44,726 bases of DNA from Candidatus Omnitrophota bacterium (GCA_043718225.1 JAYSWD010000100.1:1-44726); one strand, 5' to 3'; numbered from the stretch's first letter, positions 27,987 through 44,726 are shown. The notes: a model not told the origin generated them from the letters alone. A program made the numbers and translations.

Positions 27987-28766
27987 CCTCCGTAGCCGCG
28001 TCGGCTCACATCCACGCAGGAGCCGACGCGGCTACGGAGGCCTGTTTTGCAAGTTGGCGTTGATACTCAATGTTTGAGTTAACAAAATAGGCGTAATTCT
28101 TCGGCTCAACGGAAATCCGGTTTTGAAAGCTGCAAATAGGAAGCTCCACGTTAGATTCGATGTATTCATGATAAGACGACCATTTCCATTCTTCCGGTTT
28201 ATCGACTAGATAAGCGGTGACCGGATTTAAATGAATGTAGCGCGTAAGATGTAGGACCTGCTCATCACTTTCACATAAAACTTTCTTGCTACGACCCTGC
28301 CATAATGGTCCTTTTCGATTGTGCAAAAAATTGAAATAGTGGGTATAACTGTTTAAGACATCATTTGAAAACTTTGATACAAACTCTTCTGAGTCAGCTT
28401 CCACGGCAATATGAAAATGAGTTGGCATGAGACAGTAAGCAAGGATGGTGATGGTTCTATTTTTATTGATGGGGAACGCCAGCAACGCGGAGAGGGAATT
28501 CTTTGTGTGTAATTCAAGAAATCGTGAGAAAGACACAAAAGCAGGTTTTGATTGATAAAATTTTAAAAGCATTTGCATTCGTAGGAAATCTTGAGGCCTA
28601 CAAAAAACTTCGTAACCCGCAATGCTCTTGTTGAATAAGTGGTAAACGAGGGGTGGCATGTATTCATTATAATCATAATATAATTATATTTAAATAAATA
28701 TTATGCTCTTTTCCACCGTAACCGCGTCGGCTCCGCTCTACGTGTGAGCCGACGCGGTTACGGTGG
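27987..28766 (-). mobile_element. RAYT/IS200-like unit: Y1 (HUH) transposase gene flanked by two near-identical REP-type hairpins
   Basis: Left hairpin 27987-28040: CCTCCGTAGCCGCGTCGGCTC-12-nt loop-GAGCCGACGCGGCTACGGAGG. Right hairpin 28713-28766: CCACCGTAACCGCGTCGGCTC-12-nt loop-GAGCCGACGCGGTTACGGTGG. The stems match at 19 of 21 positions. The transposase gene lies between them. Confidence 0.7.
28006..28659 (-). CDS. REP-associated tyrosine transposase (Y1 HUH, IS200-like family)
   Basis: HUH motif 'PTHFHIAVEA' and catalytic Tyr context 'RYIHLNPV', 217 aa. The 3' end of the ORF runs into the left hairpin. Confidence 0.75.
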   Translation of the reverse strand: MPPLVYHLFNKSIAGYEVFCRPQDFLRMQMLLKFYQSKPAFVSFSRFLELHTKNSLSALLAFPINKNRTITILAYCLMPTHFHIAVEADSEEFVSKFSNDVLNSYTHYFNFLHNRKGPLWQGRSKKVLCESDEQVLHLTRYIHLNPVTAYLVDKPEEWKWSSYHEYIESNVELPICSFQNRISVEPKNYAYFVNSNIEYQRQLAKQASVAASAPAWM

Positions 28767-28957: not shown

Positions 28958-31900
28958 TTGAAGGATTTCATGTTTCAAAAATGCTTCGGAAAATTTCTGC
29001 GGGCCACGGCAATCGTGACGCTTGTGACTTATATTCCGACTAATTTTTCTTATGCAGGTGTGACAGGGGCCGCGCCCGAAATTTCACTGCCCGCCGCATG
29101 GCAATTGAGTCAAAGTCTTGCGCTTGGATTGCCCGCTGAATTAGGCCGCATTGAAAGTTTGTCGCCCGGCCGCAAAGGCATTATTTTTCATCTTCAAACT
29201 GCGCACGGACATTATGAGGCGCAGGTCAAAATTCAAAAAATTCTCGAACAATTTGCCGGGCAATACGGATCCTATCCCGTGCTTCTGGAAGGTGCAGCCG
29301 GCAGGCTCAATGCCGAGCGCATTAATTTCTTTCCCAAAAATCCCGAACGCACAAAAGCAGCGGCGCATTTGCTTGCAAAAAAAGCGTTGGTCAAAGGGCC
29401 GGAACTTTACTTACTTGATCATCCCTCCGCTTTGGTGCAGGGCATCGAAAACGAAGCGGCGTACTGGGACAATCATCATCAATTTACATCGGTTTTACGC
29501 GCGCGTGAAGCGACGCAAACATTTTCAGAGGAATTCGACCGTGAGATGGAAAAAACAGCGGCCATTTTCGCGCCGGCTTTGCGCGGCTTTCTCAAAAGAG
29601 CCGAGCAGCATGAATTAGGAATTGTTTCTTACGAAAGCTGGATCGAAGAATTGCGCAACGCGGCCCAAAAGCATCTGAAAGTTGATTTAACGGACGCGGC
29701 CTGGCAGCTGCCGTGGCCGATGCTGGTGCGGTTTTTTAAAATTCAAAAAATTTCCAAAGCGTGGGATTCTCAAAAATATGAAAAAGAGAAGCCGCTTTTT
29801 ATTCGGGATGTCGAAAAGTATTTGACGAATCACAAAGTCCGAATCACGAATCACGAATTGTTTGATCGAATCAAACAATTGCTTGATTCCGCAGGGAAGA
29901 ATGTGCAGCTGCCTGAGCCCGAAACGGAAAATGCATTCGCCGAAATGCTGCGTTATTTGCCGCGCGATTTTGATTTTAAAACTTATCCGAATGTAACGCG
30001 CTTCATGGGGCTGCTTATCTTACAAAGCGAATTGCGCCCCGCCGCGCTCGTGTCTGAAATGCAGCGGATAGAACAGCTTGTCATGAATCAACTTGCGCGG
30101 GATGAAAGTGAAAAAGAAATTGGCACTGTTTTTTCTGATTACCGTCTGCTGAAAAAAACACTCGCATTGCAGTTGACACCGGATGATTTTAGAAAAATTA
30201 TTGAGCGTACAGCGACCAGCGTACAGCGTGCAGCGAAAATGCAGCCTTCTCAAATTACAGAGCGGCTTAAAGCGCTCAACAATCAACGCCGCGCTCAATA
30301 CTCGGTACGGGGTACGGGGTACGCAGAACCCTCTTCGAATTCAGTTCATGAGATTAAGGTTAAGTATCTCAAAGAGTTGGATGGGCTATTTAATCTTGCA
30401 ATTGAATTCTATCAGGGTGCGAAAAAGCGCGACGAACTCATGATTCAAAACACGGAGAATTATTTACAAAAAAATCCCGCGAAGTTTGCGGTTCTGGTGA
30501 CCGGGGGATTTCATACCGATGCCATGCGCAAGCAATTTGAAAAAGAGGGTTATGCCTACGCAGTCGTGACGCCCGCCATTTCCGGTCCCGATGAAGAGGG
30601 ATACAAAGCATATTTGAAAAATATGCTACAAAGCAGCACAGCGTACAGCGTACAACGTACCGCGCAAACGACATCGGGGTCTGTCCTTGGCGCGAATGCG
30701 ACGGGGACTGACCCCCATGCTCTTTTCAATCGCAACCAAAATCTTGAATCTGCTTATGGCACCGATATTTTGGGAGAAGCGACGCGTCGTTCTGAATTTA
30801 GAATGCTCGTGCAAGCTGCGCGTGACGGGAATTTAAGCTTACCGCACCGCTCTGAAAACCGCGCTTCCGCCGAACCTGCCGAAGAAGAGCTTCCTGCCCC
30901 AAGGACGTCAGCAGAATTAGCACAAAGAACAACTTGGCCTACCAGCAGAATTTCAAAAGCAGCGTATTCGGCCAAAATAGAGAAACGCAGAGGGCGCTCT
31001 GAAGCGCGGGATAAGAGACCGGATCCTGCCGGTGAGTTGGTGACCCAGGATGAAAAGAGGCGTAGAGCTTTTTCGAATCAAGCAACGAATCGCTTGAACA
31101 GCAAGACAGCCTTGCTTGTGGTCGTTTTTGCGACGGCATTTTTGATTTTTGGGCCATTGTGGCTTTATTTAGATTCAGTCACAACGAAAATGGCCGCGGT
31201 TGATGCGCAGAAAAAGCAATATTTTTTGGATGGGGGGCCGGATGCACTAGGTGAATTCAAGCCGGTTGTACCGCATACGTTTTGGGACACGCTGGTTGAA
31301 ATTTGGCAGTGGGTCTTGGTTGCAGGGCAATATGTTTTAGCGGCGGGCATCGCGGTTGTTGTTCTCAAAATTGTTTCCTCGCTGTATTTTTCTTTTCGCG
31401 CCATGCGTGATGCGCGCGTGGGATATGTCATGCTCCCGGACAGCGATAATCTTGAAGCGGCATTCGATCGGCTTTTGTGGTATCGCGATGAAAAGCATTT
31501 TCAGGTTTCAATACGCCTGAATGGCGACGGAGAGCATGTTTTAGATTCGCAGGCCGTTTCCGAACGTTTTTTTGCAGCAATTAAACGGGCCCTTATTTCC
31601 GATTACGGAGCCGGCAGAAAAAATCCTATTTCAGCCAGCTATTTATTTGACAATGCCGCCAAAAAAGTGACTTTGCATTTAAAGACGCGCCGCCAAAATC
31701 CGAAGGATCGCGGCGAGTTCGAAGCGACGAACTTGATCGAGGGAACTTTTTTATTCACACCGCCTTGGCACCGTCGAAGCTGGATTACAAAAAACTTAAA
31801 CCGCCTTGCCGATCAAATGAGCGCAGCGCATGACGAAAAGCAGACGCGTGTTATTCGCGGCATGCCGCGGTCCGCGACGAAGCAGAATGATATGGTTCTG

Positions 31901-34900
31901 GTTTTTCGTCCCGATACGAAAGCATTATCAAATGTGGCTATGTATATGCGTGTGCTGCTTGCGATATGGCGCCATGGTTACGCTGTCGTCGAAAGCCGGG
32001 CTTATTCAGCGGCTGATTTAAGATACGGCATTATTAATCAGCCGTCTATTCTTGCGCAATTGTCTCCGGCCATGGAGGCTCTTTCAGCGGGTAAAATAAC
32101 CGGCAATAAGGATGGGGGTGAAGCTTTATTTTTTACTCCGGAGCAACGGAGCCTATTTCAGCGGGAAGCCCTTCCGTTTATGGCGGAGAAAGGTACCGAT
32201 GAGGAAAACTTGATTGGCGCGGGAGCATTATTACAGAAGTCCGGTTTAAAATTGCGCGATTTGAAAGCTTTATATCAAAAAGCACCGCAGGATATTTTCG
32301 GAGAAGGTGATGAACGTTTTGAAATCTCTATTTTGACTTTGCCCGATGCTGAGCATATTCAGCCCCAATTCAGAAACCGAACACTAGCCGTTTTGAACGT
32401 GTTTTATGAAATTGAAAAAGCGCGATTTATAGAAAGTTCCGATTCCACGGTGGTTTTGCGCCTCCGGCCCTTGAGAAAATTTCCGCTTCCGGTTTCAGAA
32501 CGGCAAGTAGCGCTTCTTCGCCATTTTGGTTTTCAGAATACAACACAGATGTCGGTCGATTCCTGGTCTTGGCGCGCGCAAGAAGATGATCCTTTGCTTG
32601 GATTGGGCCCCTATTACAGCTTTGATTCTCAGCGCCCATTTATCGAGATTATGTTAGCGGAGGAAGTTGCCGTTGCGCTGCGCGCCTGGTTTACCCCGCA
32701 AATAACTTCGCTGCGTTCCGAAATGAGGGTGGAGCTGCAGGGAAGCGAGCCTACTTTTAAAGCGGGGTCTTTACCGCCGGGCTACAAACTTTTGAAATTC
32801 GATTTTACGGAAGAAGATAGGGAAAAGGTTTCAGAACTGTTTTCCGGCATGAAGCAGAATCTTCTCGCGCACCCAGGCCACAACGCACAAAGAAGATTCA
32901 CGAATCATATTGTCAAAAAAGTTTTTGGGCTGGCTGTTGCTCCGAAGCCGGGCGTTGCGCGGCATGCTGTTTATTTTGTGATTACGGATAAAAATCAAAT
33001 CGCGGCGGTTTATTTGCCCGCGTCTCAGCAGGAAGGCCTGGTAAAAGAAATCGCTGCCGGACATATTTTTTTGCCGAAACGAACCACGGAGTTTGGGCCT
33101 GTCAAAAAACATTTAGAGCGTCAGGGAATTGACAAAAAAGACATTTCTTCCTCTGCTGAAAGTTCAGCCGCGTACCTTGAATCCCAAAACCAGTCCAGTT
33201 TCGTTTTTGCTTCCCCCGCACGCTCCGAAATGCGGGAGTTTAAGCATGATAATTTAAACTGGAAAATTGCCGCTGACGAAGAAGTCTTATCGAAGGCTGC
33301 TGTGGATGCGATTGCAAAAGTGCTACTGGCGAAACCCAAAGCTGTTTTTCTTTTACCGGCGGGCAAAACGTCAGTGCGCATGTATGAGATTTTAGCGGAG
33401 CGAGCTAATGAAGAAGAAATCGATTTGACGCCGGCTACGATTTTTATGCTCACGGAGTATCGTGCAGGCAAAACCGCCCGCGCCTTTATTGACGAACATA
33501 TGAACAGCCCCATTGCTAGATTGAAAAGGCCCTCTGCGATTTATGTTTTGGATGGCACGACGAGGGAACCACAGAAAGAGGCGGAACAATACGAAAGAAT
33601 GATAGCCGAAGCAGGCGGTGTGGATCTTGCCGTATTAGAAATCGGTAATCAGGGTGAAATCGGTTTTAACGAAGTGGGCGCGTCTTTTGATTCCCCGGCG
33701 CGCGAAGTTACTTTGTCCGACACTTTACGAGCAGAGCACCAGGTGAGTTCTATGAAAGGGTTTACGGTGGGCATGCGAGTCATTCTTGATTCCAGAAAAA
33801 AAATTCTTTTGATCAGCGGTGCATCCAAAGCCAAAATTGCCGGAAAACTTTTTGGTCAAAAACCGGACCTATCTCTTCCCGCAAGCGTGCTGAAGCAGAG
33901 GGGGAATACAGATGTTTTGATTACAGAAGATGCCGAAATGAACATGGGTTTGCCGGAAAAAATGCAGGGCGCCCCGGGTTTTGAAGTTTATCAAGAAAGA
34001 GTGCATGCCGTGTTGGCGCAGGTTGTTGATCGGTGGATTGAGTCGGATAATAGTTACAAAGCGTATTTAAAAATATTGATCGAACTTGTTAAGAAAAATT
34101 TGAGAGTTGCGCCATTTTATACATTTTCAGAAATTGCGAGCGCGCCCGTGTTTAAGGAAGCAAAAAACATTCATCTTTTGCCTGAAATACTTGGCAATGC
34201 TGAGGTTGGCATGCGCGAAATAAATGTTTTTAAAACCGCTCCAGCATTACCCCCAAGTGATGAGGATCTAGCGGATGCATTGCGCGTCAAACGCGACACC
34301 GAACTTTTGGCTGCAACAACGATTTCGCGCGCGGAACTCGAAAAAGTCAATACTTCACAGGAGCCGTTGGGAATCAGCTTTAGCGGGCGCGAACAAAAAA
34401 TACATGCTGTTTGGTGGGGGCTAACAGAGATTCAACGCTCAGATTTTTCAAATTATTATGGAATCGGTACGCCGGAGACACCGCTTGCTCCGGCTGCATC
34501 GCAAATGGATATTGCAAAAGCACGCGGAAATGTTACGTCGGCGAATGTAGGCGCATCGATAAGAGTAGCAATAAGGAAACTGCGCGCGTTTGACGAACAG
34601 CCAGCTGTGGATGGGGCGCCTGAAGAATTGGGGCTGGCGCTAACTGATTTAATTGCTGAGATTTTGGCTGCTATGCCGGCAGGGACGGAGCTGGATGCGC
34701 AGCTATTAGCACGGCTTAAGAAGGCCGGACCCAAAGATGATCGCACTTGGCTCGAAGTTATTTTATTTAGCCGTCAAAAAGCTCTTTTAAAAATGTATGC
34801 CGACAAGCCGTTTGCAGCGGATGAAAAAGTTTCTCTCAAAGATCTTGTCGATGCTGCGCGAGGGAGTGATTCCGTCGGCAAATCTGTTTTGAAAAAAAGC

Positions 34901-37900
34901 ATCCTAAAATTTGTTGCAGAGAAAGGAATTGCCTGGGATTTGCTGTTTTTAAATGATCCGAATTTTGTGGAAAAAGCGGCTGGACCCTCTGCCGGAAAAG
35001 GATTGCGGGGCATAAGCACGAATCTTAAATGGACGCTTGCTAAGTTTTTAGAGCATGCGGACACGGATCGCGCATCGCTTGAAGAGGCAATAAAAAGCAA
35101 AACGGGAATTTTCGCGAAACCGCATGTTCGCATGTATTTTGGGTTGCGATTTTTGGGAAAAACCGAACGCGAAAATAAGGAAGTTATTGATTACCTTGCC
35201 AGAAGATACAAAGGGCAATATAAAATTGATGATGAATGGGCGCATGATTCCATTAAGCTTGCGAAAACCCAGTTTCATGGCATCAAAGAATTGCCGAAAG
35301 CCGAAACCGCGGCGAAGGAAGTTCCAGCTCCGGCGGCGGCAGAGTTGCAGGCTGACCCAAATCCCGCGGCGCCTCCTATGGAAATAACACCAATTGCGGC
35401 ACCTGATGGAATTCTTCCGGTTGAGGGGGCAGCTGCAGAACATGATGAGCCAGCCGCGGCGCCGCTCACTACTGATGCACCAGCAGGGAATGATTCTGAG
35501 CCAATAGCCGCGATTGCCGCTCCACCCGAATCTTATTCCGTTCTACGCGAGATGATGCAAAGGTCAAAACTTGCTTCGCCGCATCTTGACGAAATTCTCG
35601 CCTTAAGACGCAAAAATTGGATAAGAAAAATTCTGGAATTGGATTTAGTCGGTTATGAAGCGCGGTTAGCAGATTCTGCGCAGAAGGCACAGGCAACGCG
35701 GGAAATTCGAGGAATTATTGTCGAAGCAAAAATTGAGCGTTTGATTGAAAGTCCACATGGCGCGGCCGAAGAGCAAGCACGAGAAGTCGTAATTAAATTG
35801 AAAGAAATGATTCATTGGGAAGATCATGCCGGCGACATTGTTAAAATTGTCGCGCCTGAGCCGAAGCCTCGCGCGCCACAACCTGCTGCCGCGCCCTCTC
35901 CCTTGGCCGCCGCACCTGCTGAGCCGGAACTTCCGCCGGTTGATAGTGCGACAACAAAAGATTTTCAAAGCGACTTGCGTAAATGGCTGAATCTCGCTGA
36001 CCACAACTCTTTGGCACGGTTACTTCAGGATGCGTTTTTGAATCCTGCGGATGAAGTGAAAGTGAGTAAATGGGTGAGAGATAATCCGGATGCCGAAATC
36101 AAACTACGTTATTTGGAAAAACACAGCGCATCCCCGAGACAACAGCGTGAACTTTTTGCCAAGGCCCAAGCTATTTATAAAAGGTCCGATTACCCCCTTC
36201 TCGATCAGTTAAACGCGTTGAAATCAGAATTAGACGCTTTAATTGTGGATGCTAAAAGAACGGGCGCAGATTTAAACCCACTACTCAATTGGATGGGAAC
36301 AAAAGGTGCTGGGTTTAAACACAATGCGGACTATTTAGCAGGCAAAGGCTTTCCAGTTCGAGAGCATTTAGAAGCTCATGCTAACGCTGAAGATTTGTTT
36401 GTCGGCCGTTCCGAAATGCGAGAAATATTAATAGAAGCAGTCTCTCTCGACCCCATCGTTTTAGACGACGGCCGGGAAATTCAAATGTTTGCGATTGATC
36501 CGAACGATGATCTTAATTGGAACGCGATACGCGAAGAAGGGGGATTGAGTGACGTTATTGATGAATTAATACCCGAAGACTTTCCGTCACCCTCACTTCT
36601 TTTTACTGAGATACAATTTCGTCTTGGAATATTGGATGGCCGTCTTGTTTTGATAGATGATGTGGATGGTCATGAACACAGAGGATCAACGACTCATAGA
36701 GGGATGGCTTTGGGTTTAAACGGTGAAAAGGCACAAATAGAAGCTGCCACGCGAGGCGCGCAGCTCACAATAATCGATCTTCCCGCAATCGAGCTTCCAG
36801 TGCGCATTGGTACCCCGGCTGCTGCTGGCGGGTACACTCCGATTACCTTTGAAGTTTCTAAGGCCCGCTCCGAATTCCGTTTCGCGCCGATGGCCACTTT
36901 TTCCGTGCTAGCAAAAAAAATTAGAGGCATCGATCCTTTTTATGCGGTCTTATTAGGTTTAGTTGGAGTGATTTTTTGGTTGAATGATCACAATTGGGGC
37001 GGTGCGGGAGTAATCGTCGCGCTTTTACTTCTTATAGCTAGAAAAGCAGGTGACAGAAAATTGCCGGATCAAACAAAAGAGCTGCTGGCAAATATTTTTT
37101 GGGAAATAAACGCTCGCAATATAAAAACAATTGTCTTTTATGTTAATGGGAACAAACGCGCGCACCAAATTGAGGTTGATCGGGATTTTGAACCGATTCT
37201 CAGGAAATCAATCCGTGAGGTTTTGGCACTTGCCACAAACAATGGGAACAATGGAATTGCCTGGGATTTCCCTGCCCCTGACGTGCGAGATTCCACTATT
37301 TTAACGGTAAACGTTTCCACTTCGCGCTCCGAAATGCGTACTGCGGATGAAAAAGTTCAAGATTTTATTACGACACTGCGAATGAAGCGGGCTGCCGTTG
37401 ATTTTACGAACAATGACATTCGTATTGCTTTGAATCCGTCCGAAGTCGCAATTGATGAAAGCCGTATTCCTACATTTACGGGACGATCAAAGGAAATTTT
37501 TGATATTTTTTCATTCATTGCTTATCGGCTCGGCTTAACGGTGGATCTTGTGTCTCTGGGTGAGCCTAAGACTGAGGAGCAATGGCTTGTTTTGACATCG
37601 CAACCCTCCGACACTGCCTTCCTGGAAAAATTGAAGACGACAGTCGAAACGCGCTATCCAAATTTGTTGTATAAAAATCAACTCGCGGCATCTGATCAAG
37701 ATTTTTATGCACCAACTAAAAAGCGGCCTTTTCTAGTCGCCCTGATGACTTTATTTGTTTCTATTGGGGGGATGATTTTAAATTTGCCCGCTCTATCTAA
37801 TTGGATGAAAAGCCGGGGTTGGACGAGTGCAAATGATCTTGTTTCAAGCATGCCTTTAATTTTCATTTTTGTGGCTAGCGCGGTTGTTGCGGGTGCTACT

Positions 37901-40900
37901 TACTTCGTCTCAAGTTTCATCGCCCGGAAATTTGCCCAACATCGTTCCGCAAAAAATTTGCGCAAAGCCGAACGTTTAGACGTCGCCAATGAAAAATGGC
38001 CGCACAATTTTAACAAAACACAACGCTCTGAATTACGCGAAGCGCAGCTCCGGCCCATTTTGGAAGGAAGCACGGATGCTTTAACCTGGTTTCAGGCATT
38101 CAGTGAATTTGAGCCCGCACAACCAAGCGACAAAGTGATTGTCACGATTCAGATTGCGCGCGGCATTCGAATGCAAGTCCCGATCTGGCGCGCAGCGCTC
38201 ACCGACCCTGAACTTCAAGAATCCGCTTACCGCTATCTTTCGACCTGGACTTATAATCTTTCCGCGCGATACGGGACTTCGTTTGCTGCGATCGGGACAG
38301 AAGGTACGGCAGAGTTGATTGATGTTGCAAGAATTGAGCATTTGTTAACTCGAGAGAATTTAGCCGCAGTTCATCAAAGCTACGAAGCATCCGGCGGTGT
38401 TAGTTCCTTTGGCATTAGTAATTATGCAAACGGAGGCGAGTCCGTTGAATTTAAAAAACTTTCGGAATTAACAGACGCAGAAAAAGAAGAAAAACCGCTG
38501 AGTTTAAATATCAAATTACGTACGGATGCGCCCGGATCTTATCTAGGCGTTGATATTGGCGGCGGTTCTGCGAAATTTGCTGTAATTCGAAACGGAAAAA
38601 TTTTAGATATTCCCGAAGAATTTCAAAGTCTTCCAACCGTTCTTTTAAATACCGCTAACGTAGAAGTTCAAGAAACGCCCCAACAATATTCCGAACGAAT
38701 CGCAGGGCATATTGAAAAAATTGGGAAAGCGCTTGGTATCAGATTCGACGGTATTGGAATCGATACTCCCGGAGCCAAACATTTGACTGAAAATAAGATG
38801 GTGACACTAGGGCAGCTTCCCGTTGTTAAGAAATGGGACATGGGCGCGGTTAAAGAGTTTGGCCGCTTACTTCCTCTTACTGTTGCGCAGAAACAAGGGC
38901 TGGATTCTGAAAAAGTGATGATTCGCAACGATATGGACGGCGTGCTTCCGGGCGTAGCCTCGGTGCTGCCGCAAATTGTGCCTGAATTTTGGAAAAGAAC
39001 CGGCGGTAATTTCCGTTTCGATTGGATGGGGACGGGGCATGGCAATCAGGACGCGATCGGCGGCCTTCCCATGAATGCGCCAACAGAGGCCGGTCATTTT
39101 GTGCATGATTTTGCACGCCCCGGCGCAAAAGTTTTTGACACCGAAGCTTCTACGAGCATTCCCGGAATGATACTCGATGCAATCACGCAGGTGAGTGGCA
39201 GCAGGAGTCGCTGGGATGAATTACTGCAAGGAAAATTTAAACCATTGGCCGAGGAGATTGCTAAACGTCCAGTTGATGCAAATTATGAAAGAGGAATGAT
39301 TGCTGCGAGGACTTTACGCCGCTTTGCTAACGAGTATGCCGCAAATTTAGCAATCCATTACTGGATGACTCAATCCACGGGGAAGGGCAGTCCGGATGAA
39401 ATTGTTTTTGGCGGCGGAATTGTCCGTAAAGGTAGAGAAGATTATTTTAAAAATTTGATACTTGAAGCGCTTAAAAAATATGATTTGCAGGATAAAATTC
39501 GCATTACGGTCATATCTGATGAGGACCTCAAAAAAGCAAATATGAGCCCGGACAATGCCGGCCCCATCGGAATGGCGATGTTTATTCAAAGCGTTCTCGC
39601 GTCGAACCAAGCCACGACAACGTTAGAGCCCAATCCTATTACTGCAGCCGAATGGGCAGCGGTAAGAAAAGATTTTAAAGTTGATGATGACGCGCGGATA
39701 CCTCTCGCGCTAGCGGGAGTCTCTGAAACGGATGCCCAGAGAATTTACAGTCATCTCTTTCGTTATGATGGGCCGATTCAGCGTGTCATGGCCGCATTAC
39801 ATAAATTGGACCCAAGGCGATTTGACCTTCACCCTATCCTTTTCCTTGTGAATGATGATTTGTCAGACTATGACCCAAATTGGGGGCCAATTGTGCAAAG
39901 AACCCCACTTAAAGTAATTGTCGTTCCTGTCTCGACAGCATTTTTACAGAAAGTGAAAGCTGCACCTGCCGGTACTTTGTCAGAAGCTGAAATGGAGTTG
40001 TATTCCCGCTTTGCGTTTTCACTTACGGTTGCCCGCATGAGCCCCGCTGTGCATATGATTTTAAATACAGAAAACGTCTCGATTTCATTACCGGTGGAAA
40101 TTATTTTGAAAATGGCCTCCTGGGATGCCGCAGCATTGCGCAACTTTGAAGAGGTTCTTGGCTATAAAGTGGATGAGGGACTTGGGCAAAGCAATATTCC
40201 AGCACCCGCTTATTTAGATCCCAATGTTATAGATGCCCTTCGGCAAATGAATCTTGGTGATGGAAGAGCGGATTTCTTAGAGGTAAGCGATGCATTAGCA
40301 GCTTTTGTGAACGCCGAAGAAATTCGAACGGCAATCCGTTCAGGAGCATTGGATCATGCCCGCCAAATATTTTTGGGGCTTAAAGAAACCAAGGGCTGGC
40401 CTATGAATTATCTATTACCGCAGCAAATTGATCCGGCGGGGGTGCTTTATCAAGATGAAATGCATGCTTACCTGGGGATTATGAACCATTTAATTCTCAT
40501 TGAACAGTTTCGTGATGCTTTGCCGGCATTTTACGAAGAACAAATTCGCGCGTTGGAAAACGCGCAGGGCTTTTCTGCCGAAAAAGTCGCGCTTGCACGT
40601 AAGTATTTGGAACAATCGCCGGTATTGCGCGAGATGGCGGTGAAACAGACGGAACTTTCTGTGAGTCATATCACACAAAAATATCTTTTACCGGTGTCTC
40701 GCTTAATCGGGCGTGAAATTTTGCGCGAAAAAATAAGACAACAGCTAAATATGGGCCAGGAAGCGGCAAGTAAACTTGTTTTCACAGGATTGACCGAAGA
40801 ACTTTTCGAACGTGCCGCACAATTAGCGGGTAAACCGACCGCTCAGGATGTTGGAGTAGACCTTTCACATGCGAGCATTAGCGCAAAGCGGAATTCTGGC

Positions 40901-43009
40901 GGCGAGCCAGTTGTCATACCGTTTGCCCAATGGGATGCCACAACTCAGGCTGATTACCGCGAGCTCGCAATCGAAGGTGTTGAATTCGCCAAACGCTCTG
41001 AATTTCGTGTCTCGAACCACCAATCACCAATCACGAACAACGTCAAAGCCCGCTCCGAAATGCGGGAATCAGTCAATTACGAAGAAACTCTCGCGTTGAT
41101 TAGAAGCGCAACGCGAACCAAAGTTGAAAATGTGCCCGATACCAATCTTGAGTTATGGAAGTTTTACGGCGGCGCAAATGGCGATGAGCGTTTAGTTCAA
41201 GTTGAAGTCTTTCCAAAGAAAGGCCGCAGTGTTCAATTTAGCGGAATCAAGGTTTTTGGCCGTGGGGCAGGGGGATATTTGAATGATCCATGGAATGCGG
41301 CCTTGTTTGCTGATTCGCAAGTAGGCGCAAACGGGGAAGTAGCAGGTCTGGTTTCCCAGCATGTCGCCGATCAGCGTAAAGCAAAGTTAATAGCAGCGGC
41401 GCGCAAGAAAATTCAATCCCGTTCCGAAATGCGGGAAGTTGAGGTGGAAGTCAACAAGGTGGCAAGAAATCAAATATTAGCGGCGATTGTTACTGGGCTT
41501 GTTAAGGACGATAAAGGCGGATCTGTTCATCTGACTGTTAATACAGCATCCGTTAAGGCGGAGGAAGAATTAAAAGCGCTTGGCTTTAGTTTTAAACCAG
41601 TTGATGCTTTGCAATGGTTGCGTGAAAGCCTTTCCTCGGTGACAAAAGTTGTTCCCAAGCCCGGACAAATGCAAATTCACGCATTTGTTGGTGAGATCAA
41701 ATTAGTCATACAGTTAACAGAAGAACCTTCTGCGTTCGGCGATGGAGTTCGGCATTCTACTTATTTGCTTCCGATTATTACTCGGGGGCCGCCGGTTCAT
41801 TTTGAGAATCTTTATCCTGCCGAACTTAAAGTTCAAGGTGTTCTTCAAACCGCAGAGGCTCTTCGTGCTTTTTTAACCAACACAGAAGTTGCTGCTTATG
41901 ACGGTAGAATTATTTCCGAAGACGGAGTAGCTGCTGCTCAGCGAGAACAAGAAGTACGCAAGCGGTTAGGAACTAGCGCCACAGCTCTTTTAGAAAAGAT
42001 CCAAGCCATGCAGGCGGTTGTGCAAAGATTGAAACAACTCTTTGAGGGTACTCGGTCCGGCCTTTTAGAATGGACAGAGATTGAACAGCGTACCGCCGGT
42101 TTGAACGGCCAAAAAGATTTACTCGCAGCTGCTGAAGCTTTTCTTTCCAGGGCAAACCGCGTACCCGTGACAGAAAAAATTGAAAGTGTTCGAACTTACG
42201 CCAGCGAGATTCAAGGTTTTCGAACAACACTGAACGCTGCCATTCGCGCGCGCCTTGAAGAGGATCAAAAAGCAGTTGCTGAAAAAATTAACGCGCTTGG
42301 AGTTTCTGCTGTCGACCTTGCGATTCTCGGCGAAGTAAATGTTGATTTGATTACCGCTAAGGTTGCAAAGGATTGGGATTGGGGCAAGCGTTTGCTCGCG
42401 AAAGCTATGACTCTTTCAGCAGCCATTGACGGTCTTTCGCCAAGTTATGATCAATTTTCCACGCGAGCACAAGCGAATAGTTTTCAATACGCAGATTTAG
42501 AAAATAAAATCTTAGCCTTGCGTCAAATGAAAGAGCATTTGGAAAATGGTTTGCTGAACGCGGTGAAAGCCTATACTCCGGTGTCCGCATGGCAGCACAG
42601 TTTGCGTGGGGCCCAAAATTGGGCAAGAACACATCCTCGAAGCACCCGTTTTATTGTTGTGAGCATTGCCGTTTTTATCGGACTTACCGTGTTTTTTATA
42701 ATGACCATTCCTGAGCGCCGGGAAAAAGCCCGAGCTGCCGCGGCTCGCGCACAGGAAGCGGCCGTTTTAAAGCCGATTCGTGATTTTGTGAATGAAACCG
42801 CCGGCAACAAAAGCGAAACCTATTTTTCACAAGAGGTGGAACGCCAGGGTATTAACAATCTGAAATCAGCAGAAATTGCGCGGACGAGCGATCAAGTTGA
42901 TGCTTTTCGCGGAGTTACCTATCAAAATTGGAAAGGATTCGTTTTAAAAGACGGCAGAAACATCAAATTTATGATAATCAATTTTATAAGTTTGGCGGAA
43001 AATATTTAA
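28958..43009 (+). CDS. Giant multi-pass membrane/surface protein (4683 aa) with embedded NagB-like and ROK/ASKHA kinase-like domains
   Basis: Single uninterrupted frame of 14,052 nt. Signal peptide 'FLRATAIVTLVTYIPTNFSYA|GV'. TM clusters near aa 705-790, 2625-2665, 2895-2960 and 4595-4620. Ala/Pro-rich linkers at 35330-35520 and 35860-35940. The RSE(M/F)R motif recurs. The start could be TTG 28958 or ATG 28970. Confidence 0.8.
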   Translation: MKDFMFQKCFGKFLRATAIVTLVTYIPTNFSYAGVTGAAPEISLPAAWQLSQSLALGLPAELGRIESLSPGRKGIIFHLQTAHGHYEAQVKIQKILEQFAGQYGSYPVLLEGAAGRLNAERINFFPKNPERTKAAAHLLAKKALVKGPELYLLDHPSALVQGIENEAAYWDNHHQFTSVLRAREATQTFSEEFDREMEKTAAIFAPALRGFLKRAEQHELGIVSYESWIEELRNAAQKHLKVDLTDAAWQLPWPMLVRFFKIQKISKAWDSQKYEKEKPLFIRDVEKYLTNHKVRITNHELFDRIKQLLDSAGKNVQLPEPETENAFAEMLRYLPRDFDFKTYPNVTRFMGLLILQSELRPAALVSEMQRIEQLVMNQLARDESEKEIGTVFSDYRLLKKTLALQLTPDDFRKIIERTATSVQRAAKMQPSQITERLKALNNQRRAQYSVRGTGYAEPSSNSVHEIKVKYLKELDGLFNLAIEFYQGAKKRDELMIQNTENYLQKNPAKFAVLVTGGFHTDAMRKQFEKEGYAYAVVTPAISGPDEEGYKAYLKNMLQSSTAYSVQRTAQTTSGSVLGANATGTDPHALFNRNQNLESAYGTDILGEATRRSEFRMLVQAARDGNLSLPHRSENRASAEPAEEELPAPRTSAELAQRTTWPTSRISKAAYSAKIEKRRGRSEARDKRPDPAGELVTQDEKRRRAFSNQATNRLNSKTALLVVVFATAFLIFGPLWLYLDSVTTKMAAVDAQKKQYFLDGGPDALGEFKPVVPHTFWDTLVEIWQWVLVAGQYVLAAGIAVVVLKIVSSLYFSFRAMRDARVGYVMLPDSDNLEAAFDRLLWYRDEKHFQVSIRLNGDGEHVLDSQAVSERFFAAIKRALISDYGAGRKNPISASYLFDNAAKKVTLHLKTRRQNPKDRGEFEATNLIEGTFLFTPPWHRRSWITKNLNRLADQMSAAHDEKQTRVIRGMPRSATKQNDMVLVFRPDTKALSNVAMYMRVLLAIWRHGYAVVESRAYSAADLRYGIINQPSILAQLSPAMEALSAGKITGNKDGGEALFFTPEQRSLFQREALPFMAEKGTDEENLIGAGALLQKSGLKLRDLKALYQKAPQDIFGEGDERFEISILTLPDAEHIQPQFRNRTLAVLNVFYEIEKARFIESSDSTVVLRLRPLRKFPLPVSERQVALLRHFGFQNTTQMSVDSWSWRAQEDDPLLGLGPYYSFDSQRPFIEIMLAEEVAVALRAWFTPQITSLRSEMRVELQGSEPTFKAGSLPPGYKLLKFDFTEEDREKVSELFSGMKQNLLAHPGHNAQRRFTNHIVKKVFGLAVAPKPGVARHAVYFVITDKNQIAAVYLPASQQEGLVKEIAAGHIFLPKRTTEFGPVKKHLERQGIDKKDISSSAESSAAYLESQNQSSFVFASPARSEMREFKHDNLNWKIAADEEVLSKAAVDAIAKVLLAKPKAVFLLPAGKTSVRMYEILAERANEEEIDLTPATIFMLTEYRAGKTARAFIDEHMNSPIARLKRPSAIYVLDGTTREPQKEAEQYERMIAEAGGVDLAVLEIGNQGEIGFNEVGASFDSPAREVTLSDTLRAEHQVSSMKGFTVGMRVILDSRKKILLISGASKAKIAGKLFGQKPDLSLPASVLKQRGNTDVLITEDAEMNMGLPEKMQGAPGFEVYQERVHAVLAQVVDRWIESDNSYKAYLKILIELVKKNLRVAPFYTFSEIASAPVFKEAKNIHLLPEILGNAEVGMREINVFKTAPALPPSDEDLADALRVKRDTELLAATTISRAELEKVNTSQEPLGISFSGREQKIHAVWWGLTEIQRSDFSNYYGIGTPETPLAPAASQMDIAKARGNVTSANVGASIRVAIRKLRAFDEQPAVDGAPEELGLALTDLIAEILAAMPAGTELDAQLLARLKKAGPKDDRTWLEVILFSRQKALLKMYADKPFAADEKVSLKDLVDAARGSDSVGKSVLKKSILKFVAEKGIAWDLLFLNDPNFVEKAAGPSAGKGLRGISTNLKWTLAKFLEHADTDRASLEEAIKSKTGIFAKPHVRMYFGLRFLGKTERENKEVIDYLARRYKGQYKIDDEWAHDSIKLAKTQFHGIKELPKAETAAKEVPAPAAAELQADPNPAAPPMEITPIAAPDGILPVEGAAAEHDEPAAAPLTTDAPAGNDSEPIAAIAAPPESYSVLREMMQRSKLASPHLDEILALRRKNWIRKILELDLVGYEARLADSAQKAQATREIRGIIVEAKIERLIESPHGAAEEQAREVVIKLKEMIHWEDHAGDIVKIVAPEPKPRAPQPAAAPSPLAAAPAEPELPPVDSATTKDFQSDLRKWLNLADHNSLARLLQDAFLNPADEVKVSKWVRDNPDAEIKLRYLEKHSASPRQQRELFAKAQAIYKRSDYPLLDQLNALKSELDALIVDAKRTGADLNPLLNWMGTKGAGFKHNADYLAGKGFPVREHLEAHANAEDLFVGRSEMREILIEAVSLDPIVLDDGREIQMFAIDPNDDLNWNAIREEGGLSDVIDELIPEDFPSPSLLFTEIQFRLGILDGRLVLIDDVDGHEHRGSTTHRGMALGLNGEKAQIEAATRGAQLTIIDLPAIELPVRIGTPAAAGGYTPITFEVSKARSEFRFAPMATFSVLAKKIRGIDPFYAVLLGLVGVIFWLNDHNWGGAGVIVALLLLIARKAGDRKLPDQTKELLANIFWEINARNIKTIVFYVNGNKRAHQIEVDRDFEPILRKSIREVLALATNNGNNGIAWDFPAPDVRDSTILTVNVSTSRSEMRTADEKVQDFITTLRMKRAAVDFTNNDIRIALNPSEVAIDESRIPTFTGRSKEIFDIFSFIAYRLGLTVDLVSLGEPKTEEQWLVLTSQPSDTAFLEKLKTTVETRYPNLLYKNQLAASDQDFYAPTKKRPFLVALMTLFVSIGGMILNLPALSNWMKSRGWTSANDLVSSMPLIFIFVASAVVAGATYFVSSFIARKFAQHRSAKNLRKAERLDVANEKWPHNFNKTQRSELREAQLRPILEGSTDALTWFQAFSEFEPAQPSDKVIVTIQIARGIRMQVPIWRAALTDPELQESAYRYLSTWTYNLSARYGTSFAAIGTEGTAELIDVARIEHLLTRENLAAVHQSYEASGGVSSFGISNYANGGESVEFKKLSELTDAEKEEKPLSLNIKLRTDAPGSYLGVDIGGGSAKFAVIRNGKILDIPEEFQSLPTVLLNTANVEVQETPQQYSERIAGHIEKIGKALGIRFDGIGIDTPGAKHLTENKMVTLGQLPVVKKWDMGAVKEFGRLLPLTVAQKQGLDSEKVMIRNDMDGVLPGVASVLPQIVPEFWKRTGGNFRFDWMGTGHGNQDAIGGLPMNAPTEAGHFVHDFARPGAKVFDTEASTSIPGMILDAITQVSGSRSRWDELLQGKFKPLAEEIAKRPVDANYERGMIAARTLRRFANEYAANLAIHYWMTQSTGKGSPDEIVFGGGIVRKGREDYFKNLILEALKKYDLQDKIRITVISDEDLKKANMSPDNAGPIGMAMFIQSVLASNQATTTLEPNPITAAEWAAVRKDFKVDDDARIPLALAGVSETDAQRIYSHLFRYDGPIQRVMAALHKLDPRRFDLHPILFLVNDDLSDYDPNWGPIVQRTPLKVIVVPVSTAFLQKVKAAPAGTLSEAEMELYSRFAFSLTVARMSPAVHMILNTENVSISLPVEIILKMASWDAAALRNFEEVLGYKVDEGLGQSNIPAPAYLDPNVIDALRQMNLGDGRADFLEVSDALAAFVNAEEIRTAIRSGALDHARQIFLGLKETKGWPMNYLLPQQIDPAGVLYQDEMHAYLGIMNHLILIEQFRDALPAFYEEQIRALENAQGFSAEKVALARKYLEQSPVLREMAVKQTELSVSHITQKYLLPVSRLIGREILREKIRQQLNMGQEAASKLVFTGLTEELFERAAQLAGKPTAQDVGVDLSHASISAKRNSGGEPVVIPFAQWDATTQADYRELAIEGVEFAKRSEFRVSNHQSPITNNVKARSEMRESVNYEETLALIRSATRTKVENVPDTNLELWKFYGGANGDERLVQVEVFPKKGRSVQFSGIKVFGRGAGGYLNDPWNAALFADSQVGANGEVAGLVSQHVADQRKAKLIAAARKKIQSRSEMREVEVEVNKVARNQILAAIVTGLVKDDKGGSVHLTVNTASVKAEEELKALGFSFKPVDALQWLRESLSSVTKVVPKPGQMQIHAFVGEIKLVIQLTEEPSAFGDGVRHSTYLLPIITRGPPVHFENLYPAELKVQGVLQTAEALRAFLTNTEVAAYDGRIISEDGVAAAQREQEVRKRLGTSATALLEKIQAMQAVVQRLKQLFEGTRSGLLEWTEIEQRTAGLNGQKDLLAAAEAFLSRANRVPVTEKIESVRTYASEIQGFRTTLNAAIRARLEEDQKAVAEKINALGVSAVDLAILGEVNVDLITAKVAKDWDWGKRLLAKAMTLSAAIDGLSPSYDQFSTRAQANSFQYADLENKILALRQMKEHLENGLLNAVKAYTPVSAWQHSLRGAQNWARTHPRSTRFIVVSIAVFIGLTVFFIMTIPERREKARAAAARAQEAAVLKPIRDFVNETAGNKSETYFSQEVERQGINNLKSAEIARTSDQVDAFRGVTYQNWKGFVLKDGRNIKFMIINFISLAENI
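29825..30666 (+). repeat. Cluster of four in-frame tandem-heptamer runs in the 5' part of the giant gene
   Basis: 29825-29859: ACGAATC ACAAAGT CCGAATC ACGAATC ACGAATT. 30205-30239: GCGTACA GCGACCA GCGTACA GCGTGCA GCGAAAA. 30303-30324: CGGTACG GGGTACG GGGTACG. 30634-30666: CAGCGTA CAGCGTA CAACGTA. They encode 'TNHKVRITNHE', 'ERTATSVQRAAK', 'YSVRGTGYA' and 'STAYSVQRTAQ'. Confidence 0.6.
33250..33940 (+). other. NagB/glucosamine-6-phosphate deaminase-like domain inside the giant ORF
   Basis: 'AVDAIAKVLLAKPKAVFLLPAGKTSVRMYE...ATIFMLTEYRAG...GGVDLAVLEIGNQGEIGFNEVGASFDSPAREVTLSDTLRAEHQ...GFTVGMRVILDSRKKILLISGASKAKIAGKLFG' follows the NagB order (LGLATGSTP / FNLDEY / [24 protein letters not shown] / SG.GKA). 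Here GEDGH reads GNQGE. Confidence 0.55.
38535..39480 (+). other. ROK/ASKHA sugar-kinase-like domain inside the giant ORF
   Basis: 'SYLGVDIGGGSAKFAVIRNGKIL' is a phosphate-1 motif. 'IRFDGIGIDTPGA' is a phosphate-2 / GIGxPG motif. 'IRNDMDGVLPGV', 'GTGHGNQDAIGG' and 'DEIVFGGGIVRKG' are adenosine-motif-like. No Zn-binding cysteines are present. Confidence 0.5.
41013..41046 (+). repeat. In-frame tandem heptamer run (TCGAACC ACCAATC ACCAATC ACGAACA) in the giant gene
   Basis: Read directly. It encodes 'SNHQSPITNNV' and lies between two RSE(F/M)R motifs at 40988 and 41051. Confidence 0.55.
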
Positions 43010-44726
43010 GTCCCGATGAACTTAAAGCGGTTACGCGGATTATTTTTGAAAGAAAGATCTTGGACGGGAAAGCCGAAGACGCGGGTTTGTTTGAACGGGA
43101 CCTAGCGCTTTTCGTGCTCAAAGAAAGTTTTAATCCAGATTCCGTAGCCGCGCTGGAAAACATCCGCCGGTTTTGGAAAATAATTCTAAAGGCGGGCGAA
43201 TTCCAACCGCAAAATCTTGTTATTTCAGAGCCTGAGCAGCCCTTAAAAACTTTTATATGGAATCTCACAGAAGGGCAGAAGGCGGCAGGGCCTGTCAGCC
43301 CGGGCGATTTAGTGATCGTGGGTTTAACGCCGTCGACGGCCGGCGAGCTTCTGGTTGGCAGTAGTTCGGAAAAGATTTTGTTTTCTTCCCCGCTTACTTT
43401 ATTAAGGGGCGCCACTCCGTCCGGGTTGAACAAAGTTAAGGTGGTTCAAGGCGGGCCGGTAACCTTTGCCATGCAGAATTCTGATACGGTTGTGGCCGCC
43501 CAAGTCGAGTCGGGAGGCATTGCGAACATCGCTTTTATTCAAATATCTGATTCGGTGAAACGTTTAGCCGCGAATCTTGGTGTGATGGTAAATGATGTTG
43601 CGGGTATTAGCCCATGGATGATTTATAAGTATGGCCAAGCGTTCCTAGCTTTAGAAACAATCGACCCCAAGACAAGGCAGATGTACATTGTGATTGCTGA
43701 TATTTCGAATCATTTCGGACTGCCTTCACCGATGAAGCCAGCGAGTGAAATGGTTATCGCGAAAATCGCAGGTGATTCTTTTAAAATGGACGTGAATAAG
43801 CAGATCGTTCGAATTTTTATAGGTGATCACGCCACTGCGCTTGTGGATTTAAAAACAAGTGCGATATACGGCGATGAAAGATTAGTTCCTAACGCCATCA
43901 GAAATCACAAGGGTGAAATTCTCGATCCCGAAAAGATCTTTCAGACACGCGATCTCCAGAAAATGATCGCGCTGCTGAATCAAATGGCAAACGAAAATCA
44001 AGTTGCTATCGTTGCTAAAGAACTTTTTGAGCAAGCCATTTACTTTCTTTATAAGGAGCCTTCATTTGAGGCGATGCAGGCTTGGGCTAAAAAACAAAAG
44101 CATGAGCAGGACAAGCGTGACGCAAACAGCACTTACACCGCAGCGTTTTTAAACGCGGATCAAGAACAGCTGGTCGCTTCGCAGCTTATGCGGAATCCCT
44201 TTCAAAATTTTTATCCTCCTGTTACGCAAATCATTCATTTTAAAAATGATGTTGATGCGAACCACAGTTTTGTGATTTCGTATACGCGCAATGCCGACGC
44301 TCCGGCGGAGGGCATTTTCCGAATTCTGGAAATGCTTCCAGGCGGCGGAATGACGATTCGGCAGGAGCGTACCGGTATTTATACCGGTTTTTCAATTACC
44401 ACCCTGGGAGTTGTAACGCTTCTGAATCAAGCCGGAGGTGTCGCGCATTTTGATTTGCGCAAAGGCATCGACTTGAGTAAGGGGTCTATGATCCCCAAGC
44501 GCTCCGAAATGCGCATTGACCTTGGTGCCATGCCGCGGACCATGAGCATTATTCCGGGCCATGACTATTGGGAGATTGTCGTGCCAGCGGGGGAAACACG
44601 CGCGAGGCTTTTGCTCGCCGTCATTGCAAATATGGTCAATCCACTCAACTCTGCCAGGATTGCGGAAGTTACGAAACGCATTCAGGGCGCGTTCGCGGGA
44701 GGATTTGATAGAGTTGTGGTGATCGC
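42901..44726 (+). CDS. Open reading frame continuing in the -1 frame past the giant ORF stop (at least 608 codons, 3'-partial)
   Basis: Frame 1 is open from the stop at 42898-42900 to the window end. It overlaps the last 109 nt of the giant ORF, which is in frame 2. The first in-frame ATG is at 43468. It contains 'PKRSEMRIDLG' with the same CGCTCCGAAATGCG nucleotide motif as the giant ORF. Confidence 0.45.

Follow-up and report, generated by a model that had tools for sequence, protein, structure and literature searches.

A giant gene of a Candidatus Omnitrophota bacterium that is probably split by an unprogrammed frame break

Introduction

The window examined here is an entire contig of 44,726 nt from a Candidatus Omnitrophota bacterium. 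A giant open reading frame (ORF) lies on its plus strand at 28970-43009. A second open frame begins within the last nucleotides of this ORF and runs on to the contig end. Are these two genes, or are they parts of one gene whose frame has changed? The original prediction for this locus had left several answers side by side: paralogous ORFs or one gene and, as causes of the frame change, programmed -1 ribosomal frameshifting, a genuine frameshift mutation or an assembly error. It appears that the giant ORF and frame 1 from 42901 to the contig end are one gene with an unprogrammed break of 1 nt, and a probability of roughly 0.8 is given to this reading. Mutation and assembly error together are the best explanation of the break.

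Reading frames and coding signal

Frame 2 holds the giant ORF, which starts with the ATG at 28970, or with a TTG four codons earlier (28958), and encodes 4,679 amino acids (aa) that are identical to a database protein (P0001). It ends in ...FMIINFISLAENI (...INFISLAENI) and is closed by the TAA at 43007-43009. In frame 1, the last stop codon before the long open stretch is the TGA at 42898-42900. Frame 1 is then free of stops from 42901 to 44724, which is 608 codons, up to the end of the contig. Both frames are open over 109 nt (42901-43009) and this overlap must contain the 1-nt frame break. The opening of frame 1 at 42901, the length of the overlap and an open stretch of at least 1.8 kb had all been predicted and were found. 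The window edge to which frame 1 was said to stay open is the end of the contig itself.

Such a frame is not expected by chance. Within the giant ORF, the 4,643 codons of frame 1 include 302 stops, and the longest stretch without a stop there is 69 codons. The probability of 608 open codons at this stop density is about 2e-18, so the long open frame 1 is far beyond chance. The frame of the giant ORF has 35 stops in 572 codons after 43009. The gene continues in frame 1 at 42949-44724, with at least 592 codons that form an orphan module cut by the contig end. The fused product would have at least 5,252 aa (4,660 + 592). The earlier figure of more than 5,290 aa had counted the overlap twice.

The coding signal was explored with a codon-usage likelihood that was trained on the genes of the contig and scored in windows of 90 nt. 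The coding log-likelihood of frame 1 is positive in all windows from 42940 to the contig end, and that of frame 2 is negative from 42940. The signal thus changes over from frame 2 to frame 1 within the overlap, with no gap. The maximum-likelihood change point is at 42956, with a 2-log support interval of about 42923-43007. The single-gene origin and the position of the break are read directly from these frames and from the relatives described below. The TAA at 43007-43009 is a product of the frame break.

The composition of the two sides bears on whether they belong together at all. The last 1.8 kb could be part of a different giant gene, from this genome or a related one, that was joined near 42900-43000 in a chimeric assembly. 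Assembly graphs are least reliable near contig ends, and the break is 1.7-1.8 kb away from one. Tandem giant genes are also possible on related contigs such as L006 (see below). Against this, the guanine-plus-cytosine (GC) content is 0.477 downstream and 0.470 upstream, and the codon-usage model fits both parts equally well. No repeat longer than 12-13 nt ties the junction to the rest of the contig, and the motif that the two parts share is only 15 nt long and lies away from the junction. A chimera is the least probable of the explanations considered and is given almost no weight.

Homologs and domain architecture

The giant ORF has 74 homologs with sizes of 2.6-7.9 thousand amino acids (kaa). 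Those with a named source are almost all metagenome-assembled genomes (MAGs) of Candidatus Omnitrophota. The family as defined here consists of these homologs and the ORF in the window, which are 75 sequences with 363 kaa. The homologs align to only the first 11-14% of the giant ORF. Past the N-terminal region their Pfam domains vary and include PGM, hexokinase, UDP-glucose dehydrogenase, starch synthase, PFK, TIM, enolase, GDH, adenylate kinase, HEAT, and others. Members of the family share three elements: an N-terminal domain, copies of a pentapeptide motif (RSExR), and a C-terminal domain.

The N-terminal family domain (28970-30802, aa 1-611) ends at the first RSEFR of the protein. It consists of a signal/anchor helix and an alpha/beta core with a large helical insert. 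It is about 570-650 aa long across the family and was found in all 74 homologs with a hidden Markov model (HMM). Its identity is 68% to one member (P0002) and 27-54% to the others. Invariant residues include Q76, H79, E107, E160, and GGFH at 512-515, which contains H515. An AlphaFold model of the domain from 13 sequences had a predicted local distance difference test (pLDDT) score of 75.7, with about 88 in the core. The model has an alpha/beta fold with a parallel beta-sheet core and resembles solved members of the TIKI/erythromycin-esterase/ChaN/TraB group. Foldseek and sequence profiles gave no significant match for this domain. The domain is thus putatively TIKI/erythromycin-esterase/ChaN/TraB-like, an assignment at the level of the fold only. 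The TIKI superfamily includes esterases and site-specific endopeptidases, and has a 2His/2Glu centre (PMC6254334). The invariant H79, E107, E160, and H515 of the N-terminal domain would be candidate counterparts of the residues of that centre (PMC6254334).

The C-terminal domain of the family covers about 250-320 aa after the last RSExR motif. It is divergent and has no Pfam match. A C-terminal tail, ...[S/A/K]A, is present in the same ORF in 61 of the 74 homologs, and 51 of these 61 C-termini have a match among the others at E < 1e-5. Three of the 13 homologs that are missing the tail were examined. P0004 and P0021 are cut by contig ends, and P0071 is visibly damaged. The shared tail of the 61 members is amphipathic and finishes in ...[S/A/K]A-COOH. 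It may be a sorting or processing signal.

Two of these incomplete homologs have further features. P0004 is on a locus (L006:1-15906) that holds two giant genes in tandem. The first encodes 4,126 aa, its product running over the start of the locus, with epimerase and PFK domains, and P0004 follows about 300 nt after it; each second gene has its own N-terminal domain. In P0071 (L007:8001-22869; JGI Ga0216253_10001541) a RecJ/NrnA-like module is interrupted by a +1-type frame change that separates its DHH domain from its DHHA1 domain. After the split point, which reads ...EEQDYAV | LMAGEDWNEGVIGIVASR..., come an in-frame stop and a stretch of Ns. P0071 is a damaged or poorly assembled copy.

The two ORFs of the window are complementary with regard to this architecture. 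The upstream ORF has the N-terminal domain and the downstream ORF has the RSEMR hallmark. The C-terminal domain was not found in the giant ORF or in the downstream 608 aa, either with an HMM of that domain or with the 61 individual C-termini. Since the giant ORF has no C-terminal domain, its stop is judged to be premature. The downstream frame does not contain the N-terminal family domain, and no similarity to any homolog was found in it.

Related loci were compared as the original prediction had proposed, and the giant gene was a single ORF in both of the syntenic loci. Two closer relatives, L004 (GCA_964562525.1) and L005 (SRR22388275), have the order (ABC permease)-glmU-prs-giant gene-rplY-pth-rpsF-ssb-rpsR. 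Their giant gene is one ORF of 3,996 or 3,665 aa with the terminus ...ELVAVSA. In the window, glmU and prs lie upstream of the giant ORF as on the upstream side of the relatives' order, with a RAYT-like transposase inserted. The downstream flank, which is the rplY-pth side in the relatives, is beyond the end of the contig.

The two ORFs are considered to be parts of one gene because of the family architecture, the single-ORF synteny, and the seamless switch of the coding signal. Of the two possibilities that had been raised, one gene is retained and paralogous ORFs are rejected, since neither the N-terminal family domain nor any resemblance to the giant ORF beyond a pentapeptide was found in the downstream ORF. 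The gene would encode a membrane-anchored, modular multi-enzyme giant protein with an N-terminal domain of about 600 aa, modules delimited by RSExR, and a C-terminal domain that is presumably beyond the contig end.

The relatives also bear on whether the two parts could be translated as two genes. In a split gene the giant ORF would truly end at the TAA at 43007, and what was ancestrally one giant protein would be produced in the form of two polypeptides. The second part would start at a TTG (42928, with an 82-nt overlap, 43060, or 43087) or at a GTG (43114). These frame-1 start candidates were overlooked when the prediction pointed to 560 nt with no ATG. The first in-frame ATG is indeed as far away as 43471, 570 nt in, and this distance counts against a separate gene. 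The missing ribosome-binding site was also pointed out, and it is uninformative. Most of the 22 well-defined gene starts on the contig have no Shine-Dalgarno sequence upstream, and with such sequences rare in the genome, the absence of a ribosome-binding site is no argument against a start. The overlap is AT-rich like gene ends and intergenic regions on the contig, and the change-point interval (from 42923) allows a start at 42928. A split could be tolerable if the modules are released or independently active. Even so, the downstream part would not have the N-terminal domain and signal/anchor of all 74 homologs, the upstream part would not have the C-terminal domain found in 61 of 74, and the syntenic orthologues are single ORFs. 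Frame 1 is already open for 53 codons before the first candidate after the stop, 43060 (P about 0.03), and its coding score is positive from about 42940. No promoter or terminator pattern was found between the parts. The same frame-breaking indel would still be required as the origin of a split gene. Two separately translated genes are thus considered unlikely.

Nature of the break

If the two parts are one gene with an unprogrammed break, one base would be missing compared to an intact ORF, or two would be extra, within 42901-43009 and most likely within 42923-43007. The break could be a recent real indel. The gene would then be a truncated or newly pseudogenized copy, or the indel could be a minority variant that entered the consensus. 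Alternatively, assembly or sequencing could have gone wrong locally, in an AT-rich patch that lies 1.8 kb short of the contig end. The overlap has a GC content of 0.30 versus 0.47, and its homopolymer runs are at most 4 nt. The position of the break, in this unusual patch and 1.8 kb from the contig end, speaks for a local problem. A real mutation and an artefact are both within the best explanation.

There are several observations that weigh against an unprogrammed break. The ORFs of the contig contain 384 homopolymers of at least 5 nt, 42 of them of at least 7 nt, and none of these disturbs the frame. With long homopolymers resolved and the runs in the overlap no longer than 4 nt, a simple homopolymer miscall is not an obvious cause. 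The downstream frame has not decayed over at least 592 codons and is coding-like throughout. A mutation, if real, would therefore be very recent, and this speaks against an old pseudogene. A heptamer of the right form for slippage and a weak hairpin (z of -2.3 in one window) are within the overlap. Finally, the junction module is an orphan, and there is no orthologue with which the position of the break or the conservation of the site can be compared. For this reason the break cannot be placed by homology.

The orphan status of the module was explored in several searches. A word-index search with the fused module of 1,102 aa had no match. An exhaustive phmmer search with the downstream ORF of 608 aa against 1.84 billion representatives had one weak match (P0076, E 4e-5). 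Marine Neomarinimicrobiota contigs that came up in genome and metagenome contig scans were dismissed as a chance match of 24 residues on the non-coding strand. A single-sequence AlphaFold prediction for 42928-44514, which asked if the residues encoded ahead of 43060 are part of a fold, had a pLDDT of 35 and is unusable as a model. Split second halves were looked for with a profile of the C-terminal domain, and only three fragments on contigs of 1-2 kb were found, which gives no base rate.

Programmed -1 frameshifting

The heptamer in the overlap raises another possible cause of the frame change. Ribosomes could make a programmed -1 slip on U_UUA_AAA (42943-42949), helped by a hairpin at 42961-42997, and this would yield the full-length protein. 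Unshifted ribosomes would stop at 43007, and their product would lack the downstream modules and the C-terminal domain. The heptamer T TTA AAA had been correctly placed by the original prediction. It is in the frame of the giant ORF (codons GTT TTA AAA) and fits the pattern X_XXY_YYZ. Past this heptamer at least 592 codons are free of stops in the -1 frame, while the -1 frames of the other 46 in-frame heptamers of the giant ORF are open for at most 60 codons. The 0-frame stop follows 19 codons past the heptamer, a purine stretch (GGAAAGGA) lies 6-13 nt upstream of it, and the change-point interval covers it. Any recent indel predicts the long open -1 frame equally.

Heptamers of this form are common in these genes. 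There are 47 in frame in the 4,680 codons of the giant ORF, four of them TTTAAAA, and 92 in the 6,976 codons of the other genes. At about 1 per 76-100 codons, about 0.4 are expected in the 36 codons of the overlap (P about 0.3), and the chance is higher still given the AT-rich patch. A slippery-looking heptamer in the overlap is thus weak evidence alone.

The motif itself is also not among the known strong ones. Efficient motifs in E. coli are V_VVA_AAR, H_HHU_UUY, U_UUA_AAG, and a few others (PMC4066793). U_UUA_AAA is outside these and outside the 18 selected under-represented motifs (PMC4066793), and the host here is an Omnitrophota bacterium. The best motifs reach about 0.3% when there is no stimulator, and a stimulatory structure usually begins 5-8 nt downstream (PMC4066793). 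The folding of RNA that had been proposed as a check yielded only the AU-rich hairpin at 42961-42997, with 11-12 A-U/G-U pairs and -8.9 kcal/mol, which starts 11-13 nt after the heptamer. Its fold has a z of -2.3 in a 61-nt window, where 4 of 200 shuffles were as good. In windows of 91-141 nt the z is -0.6 to -1.4, no more structured than shuffles. The hairpin is thus weak, has A-U and G-U pairs only, and is too far away. No Rfam element in the region was above noise. A match to the Rfam flavivirus frameshift element (flavi_FSE) at 42811-42849 had 15.8 bits compared to a gathering score of 43 (E 0.83). This position is upstream of the overlap and off the heptamer, and the match was rejected as chance.

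The relatives also bear on this point. The N- and C-terminal domains are in one frame in 61 of the 74 relatives and in both syntenic orthologues. Both ends of the protein thus share a frame in this family, and frameshifting is not a family trait. P0071 is broken at another place and two members are cut by contig ends, so unprogrammed breaks do occur in database copies. With a heptamer at chance level, a motif not listed as efficient, no stable structure at a suitable spacing, and single-frame relatives, programmed slippage was not borne out and is considered quite improbable. We infer that the break is unprogrammed, that is, not decoded by ribosomal slippage.

The RSExR delimiter and the modules

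The motif R-S-E-x-R is a hallmark of the family. It was observed 613 times compared to 8.4 expected from composition, which is a 73-fold enrichment. RAExR is a minor variant with 153 copies family-wide. Small residues are favored at position -1, and V, A, M, or L at x. The first copy is always after the N-terminal domain, and the spacings are enzyme-sized. In P0003, for example, a NagB module is located between two copies that are 254 aa apart. None of the remaining genes on the contig has an RSExR in its proper frame.

The giant ORF has twelve RSExR motifs of 15 nt each on the plus strand within 30788-41434. They start at 30788, 30848, 30995, 32714, 33221, 36407, 36866, 37325, 38024, 40994, 41051, and 41420. 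A thirteenth motif, RSEMR (CGCTCCGAAATGCGC), is in the downstream frame at 44500-44514. The presence of the same RSEMR in both frames had been predicted with identical nucleotides. The motif is there, and 14 of its 15 nt are identical to the copies at 33221, 37325, and 41051.

Two putative enzyme modules were found in the giant ORF. A glucosamine-6-phosphate deaminase (NagB)-like module is encoded at 33290-33907 (plus strand). It has matches to Pfam PF01182 (E 8.6e-10) and to NCBIfam NF001684 (E 5.7e-31, under the curated cut-off), and begins about 10-20 aa past the RSEMR at 33221. A ROK-family sugar-kinase-like module is a weak match at 39290-39589 (plus strand; Pfam PF00480, E 0.0075, below the cut-off). 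A homologous module is also present in P0002. The protein has the N-terminal signal/anchor and about six further hydrophobic helices. It appears that it could be a membrane-anchored scaffold or a polyprotein of sugar-metabolism enzymes, which is put forward as a hypothesis only.

Site-specific endopeptidases occur in the superfamily to which the N-terminal domain is assigned. In combination with the sharp and context-free delimiter, this suggests that modules may be released by proteolysis. In a self-processing polyprotein, the TIKI-superfamily hydrolase or a partner would cut at R-S-E-x-R and free enzyme-sized modules. This idea, taken alone, is tentative and somewhat doubtful. A self-processing polyprotein joined in this lineage with a virus-style -1 frameshift at U_UUA_AAA, like that of coronavirus ORF1a/1b, is highly improbable. 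If it were true, the frameshift would determine how much of the upstream modules is made relative to the downstream modules plus the C-terminal domain. Of the two ideas, the polyprotein is ranked as much likelier alone than the frameshift.

The motif is uniform in some respects. The x residue is homogenized per protein, with M in 7 of 13 copies in the window and A in 9 of 12 in P0007. The motif codons in the window are CGY, TCY, and GAA in all 13 copies, while outside the motif CGY is used at 49%, TCY at 38%, and GAA at 70%. In P0007 (L004:3001-14991) the motif codons are CGN in 12 of 12 copies, TCN in 12 of 12 (nine TCY), and GAA in 9 of 12. This constraint could come from accuracy selection on key residues, from common descent of the copies, or from a role at the RNA or DNA level. 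RSEM as a Shine-Dalgarno sequence with an ATG for internal starts was tried and rejected; the Arg codons are CGY and not AGG, and x is often F, L, N, or A.

AT-rich patches (GC of at most 0.31 over 90-109 nt) are found at only four places in the giant gene: the overlap (42901-43009), about 29732, 34026-34135, and 39416-39547. Of these, one is just past the NagB module and another is where the ROK-like module ends. In the rest of the contig, patches of this kind are a mark of gene ends and intergenic regions. Those in the giant gene may therefore be remnants of earlier gene boundaries, if the gene arose by fusion. Low GC as a mark of every module boundary was rejected, as the mean GC around the 13 motifs is flat.

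The searched literature contained RSEMR as unrelated strings only and no description of an RSExR delimiter. The searched papers made no mention of such a delimiter, of a TIKI-like N-terminal domain, or of the conserved C-terminal tail, and no papers were found for Omnitrophota combined with polyprotein.

Neighboring genes

The left 28 kb of the contig has ordinary chromosomal genes. These are mfd, a surA-like gene, pdxA, ksgA, gatA, gatB, hisG, an ispE-like gene, clpX, an ABC permease pair, glmU, and prs. Several of the best ORF starts on the contig are TTG or GTG. Exact look-ups of the giant ORF, in three forms, and of Prs in a contig index returned no record, and a cluster look-up yielded neither an accession nor a name.

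Two features lie between prs and the giant gene. One is a gene for a REP-associated tyrosine transposase (RAYT/IS200-like) at 28006-28659 on the minus strand (NF047646, E 3e-15; PF01797). The other is a perfect 21-bp inverted repeat with a 12-nt loop at 28713-28766. In L004 and L005 the giant gene comes directly after prs with no transposase between them.

The mfd gene (1840-3750) is compact. It encodes 636 aa, and the next gene starts 5 nt on. Its product matches positions 307-824 of a model of 907 positions and 476-988 of a model of 1,148 positions. From this coverage, the C-terminal region of canonical Mfd is missing.

Comparison with known systems

The programmed -1 sites of bacteria include that of dnaX, where A_AAA_AAG is combined with an upstream Shine-Dalgarno-like element and a downstream hairpin. 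IS3 and IS1 transposases also use such sites. The window differs in that its heptamer is not among the motifs listed as efficient in bacteria (PMC4066793), the structure is weak and too distant, and the two-frame layout is not conserved in relatives. It is alike in its 0-frame X_XXY_YYZ heptamer, a 0-frame stop soon after, and a long open -1 frame.

Coronavirus ORF1a/1b has U_UUA_AAC and a pseudoknot within a giant polyprotein. The heptamer of the window is nearly identical, and its frame change is likewise within a very long modular ORF whose modules are perhaps released by proteolysis. The window has no pseudoknot or stable structure, it is a cellular chromosome locus after prs (and before rplY in the relatives), and its relatives have no frame change. 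Proteolytic processing of its protein is a hypothesis.

In MARTX toxins, the modules are freed by a cysteine protease domain, and the effector RRSP cleaves host Ras. MARTX toxins and RRSP, a TIKI-family effector (PMC6254334), resemble the present family as giant modular bacterial proteins in which short sites between modules suggest release by cleavage. The modules of the window are housekeeping-type enzymes, the delimiter is R-S-E-x-R, and the cleavage is hypothetical.

The closest counterparts are the giant proteins of Omnitrophota that have been classed as 'multi-enzyme metabolic cluster' (Nielsen & Lui 2026, bioRxiv 10.64898/2026.06.07.730766; West-Roberts et al. 2023, bioRxiv 10.1101/2023.11.21.568195). 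They share with the protein of the window a long polypeptide, a signal/anchor, scattered transmembrane helices, and homologs labeled Omnitrophota. They also have unrelated sugar-metabolism enzymes tiled along the chain, which in the window are NagB and ROK. With its length of more than 5.25 kaa, the protein of the window does not reach the 10-kaa threshold given in those catalogues, and its copy is frame-broken and cut by the contig end. The relevant sections of the two preprints mention neither frameshifts, nor the RSExR motif, nor a conserved N-terminal TIKI-like domain. The cleavage points of giant proteins are stated to be unknown in one of them (West-Roberts et al., bioRxiv 10.1101/2023.11.21.568195). 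A delimiter with 73-fold enrichment would make the question of one giant protein or many processed ones directly testable. The value for follow-up may be in the RSExR delimiter of the family, its TIKI/esterase-like N-terminal domain, and its ...SA/...AA C-terminal tail.

The frame break itself is minor. It adds a further case of a very long MAG gene that is annotated as truncated, with 4,679 aa for a product of more than 5,250 aa. The case is like other frameshift-disrupted MAG genes, which are pseudogenes or consensus errors, in having a single frame change, halves that jointly match intact relatives, and no recoding signal above chance. P0071 (L007), which is also of this family, has its break at a different place. 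The only differences from such genes are the unusual length of the gene and the orphan nature of the broken module. The gene in the window is an addition, truncated by assembly, to the known multi-enzyme giant proteins of Omnitrophota, and its break is of the ordinary class seen in MAGs.

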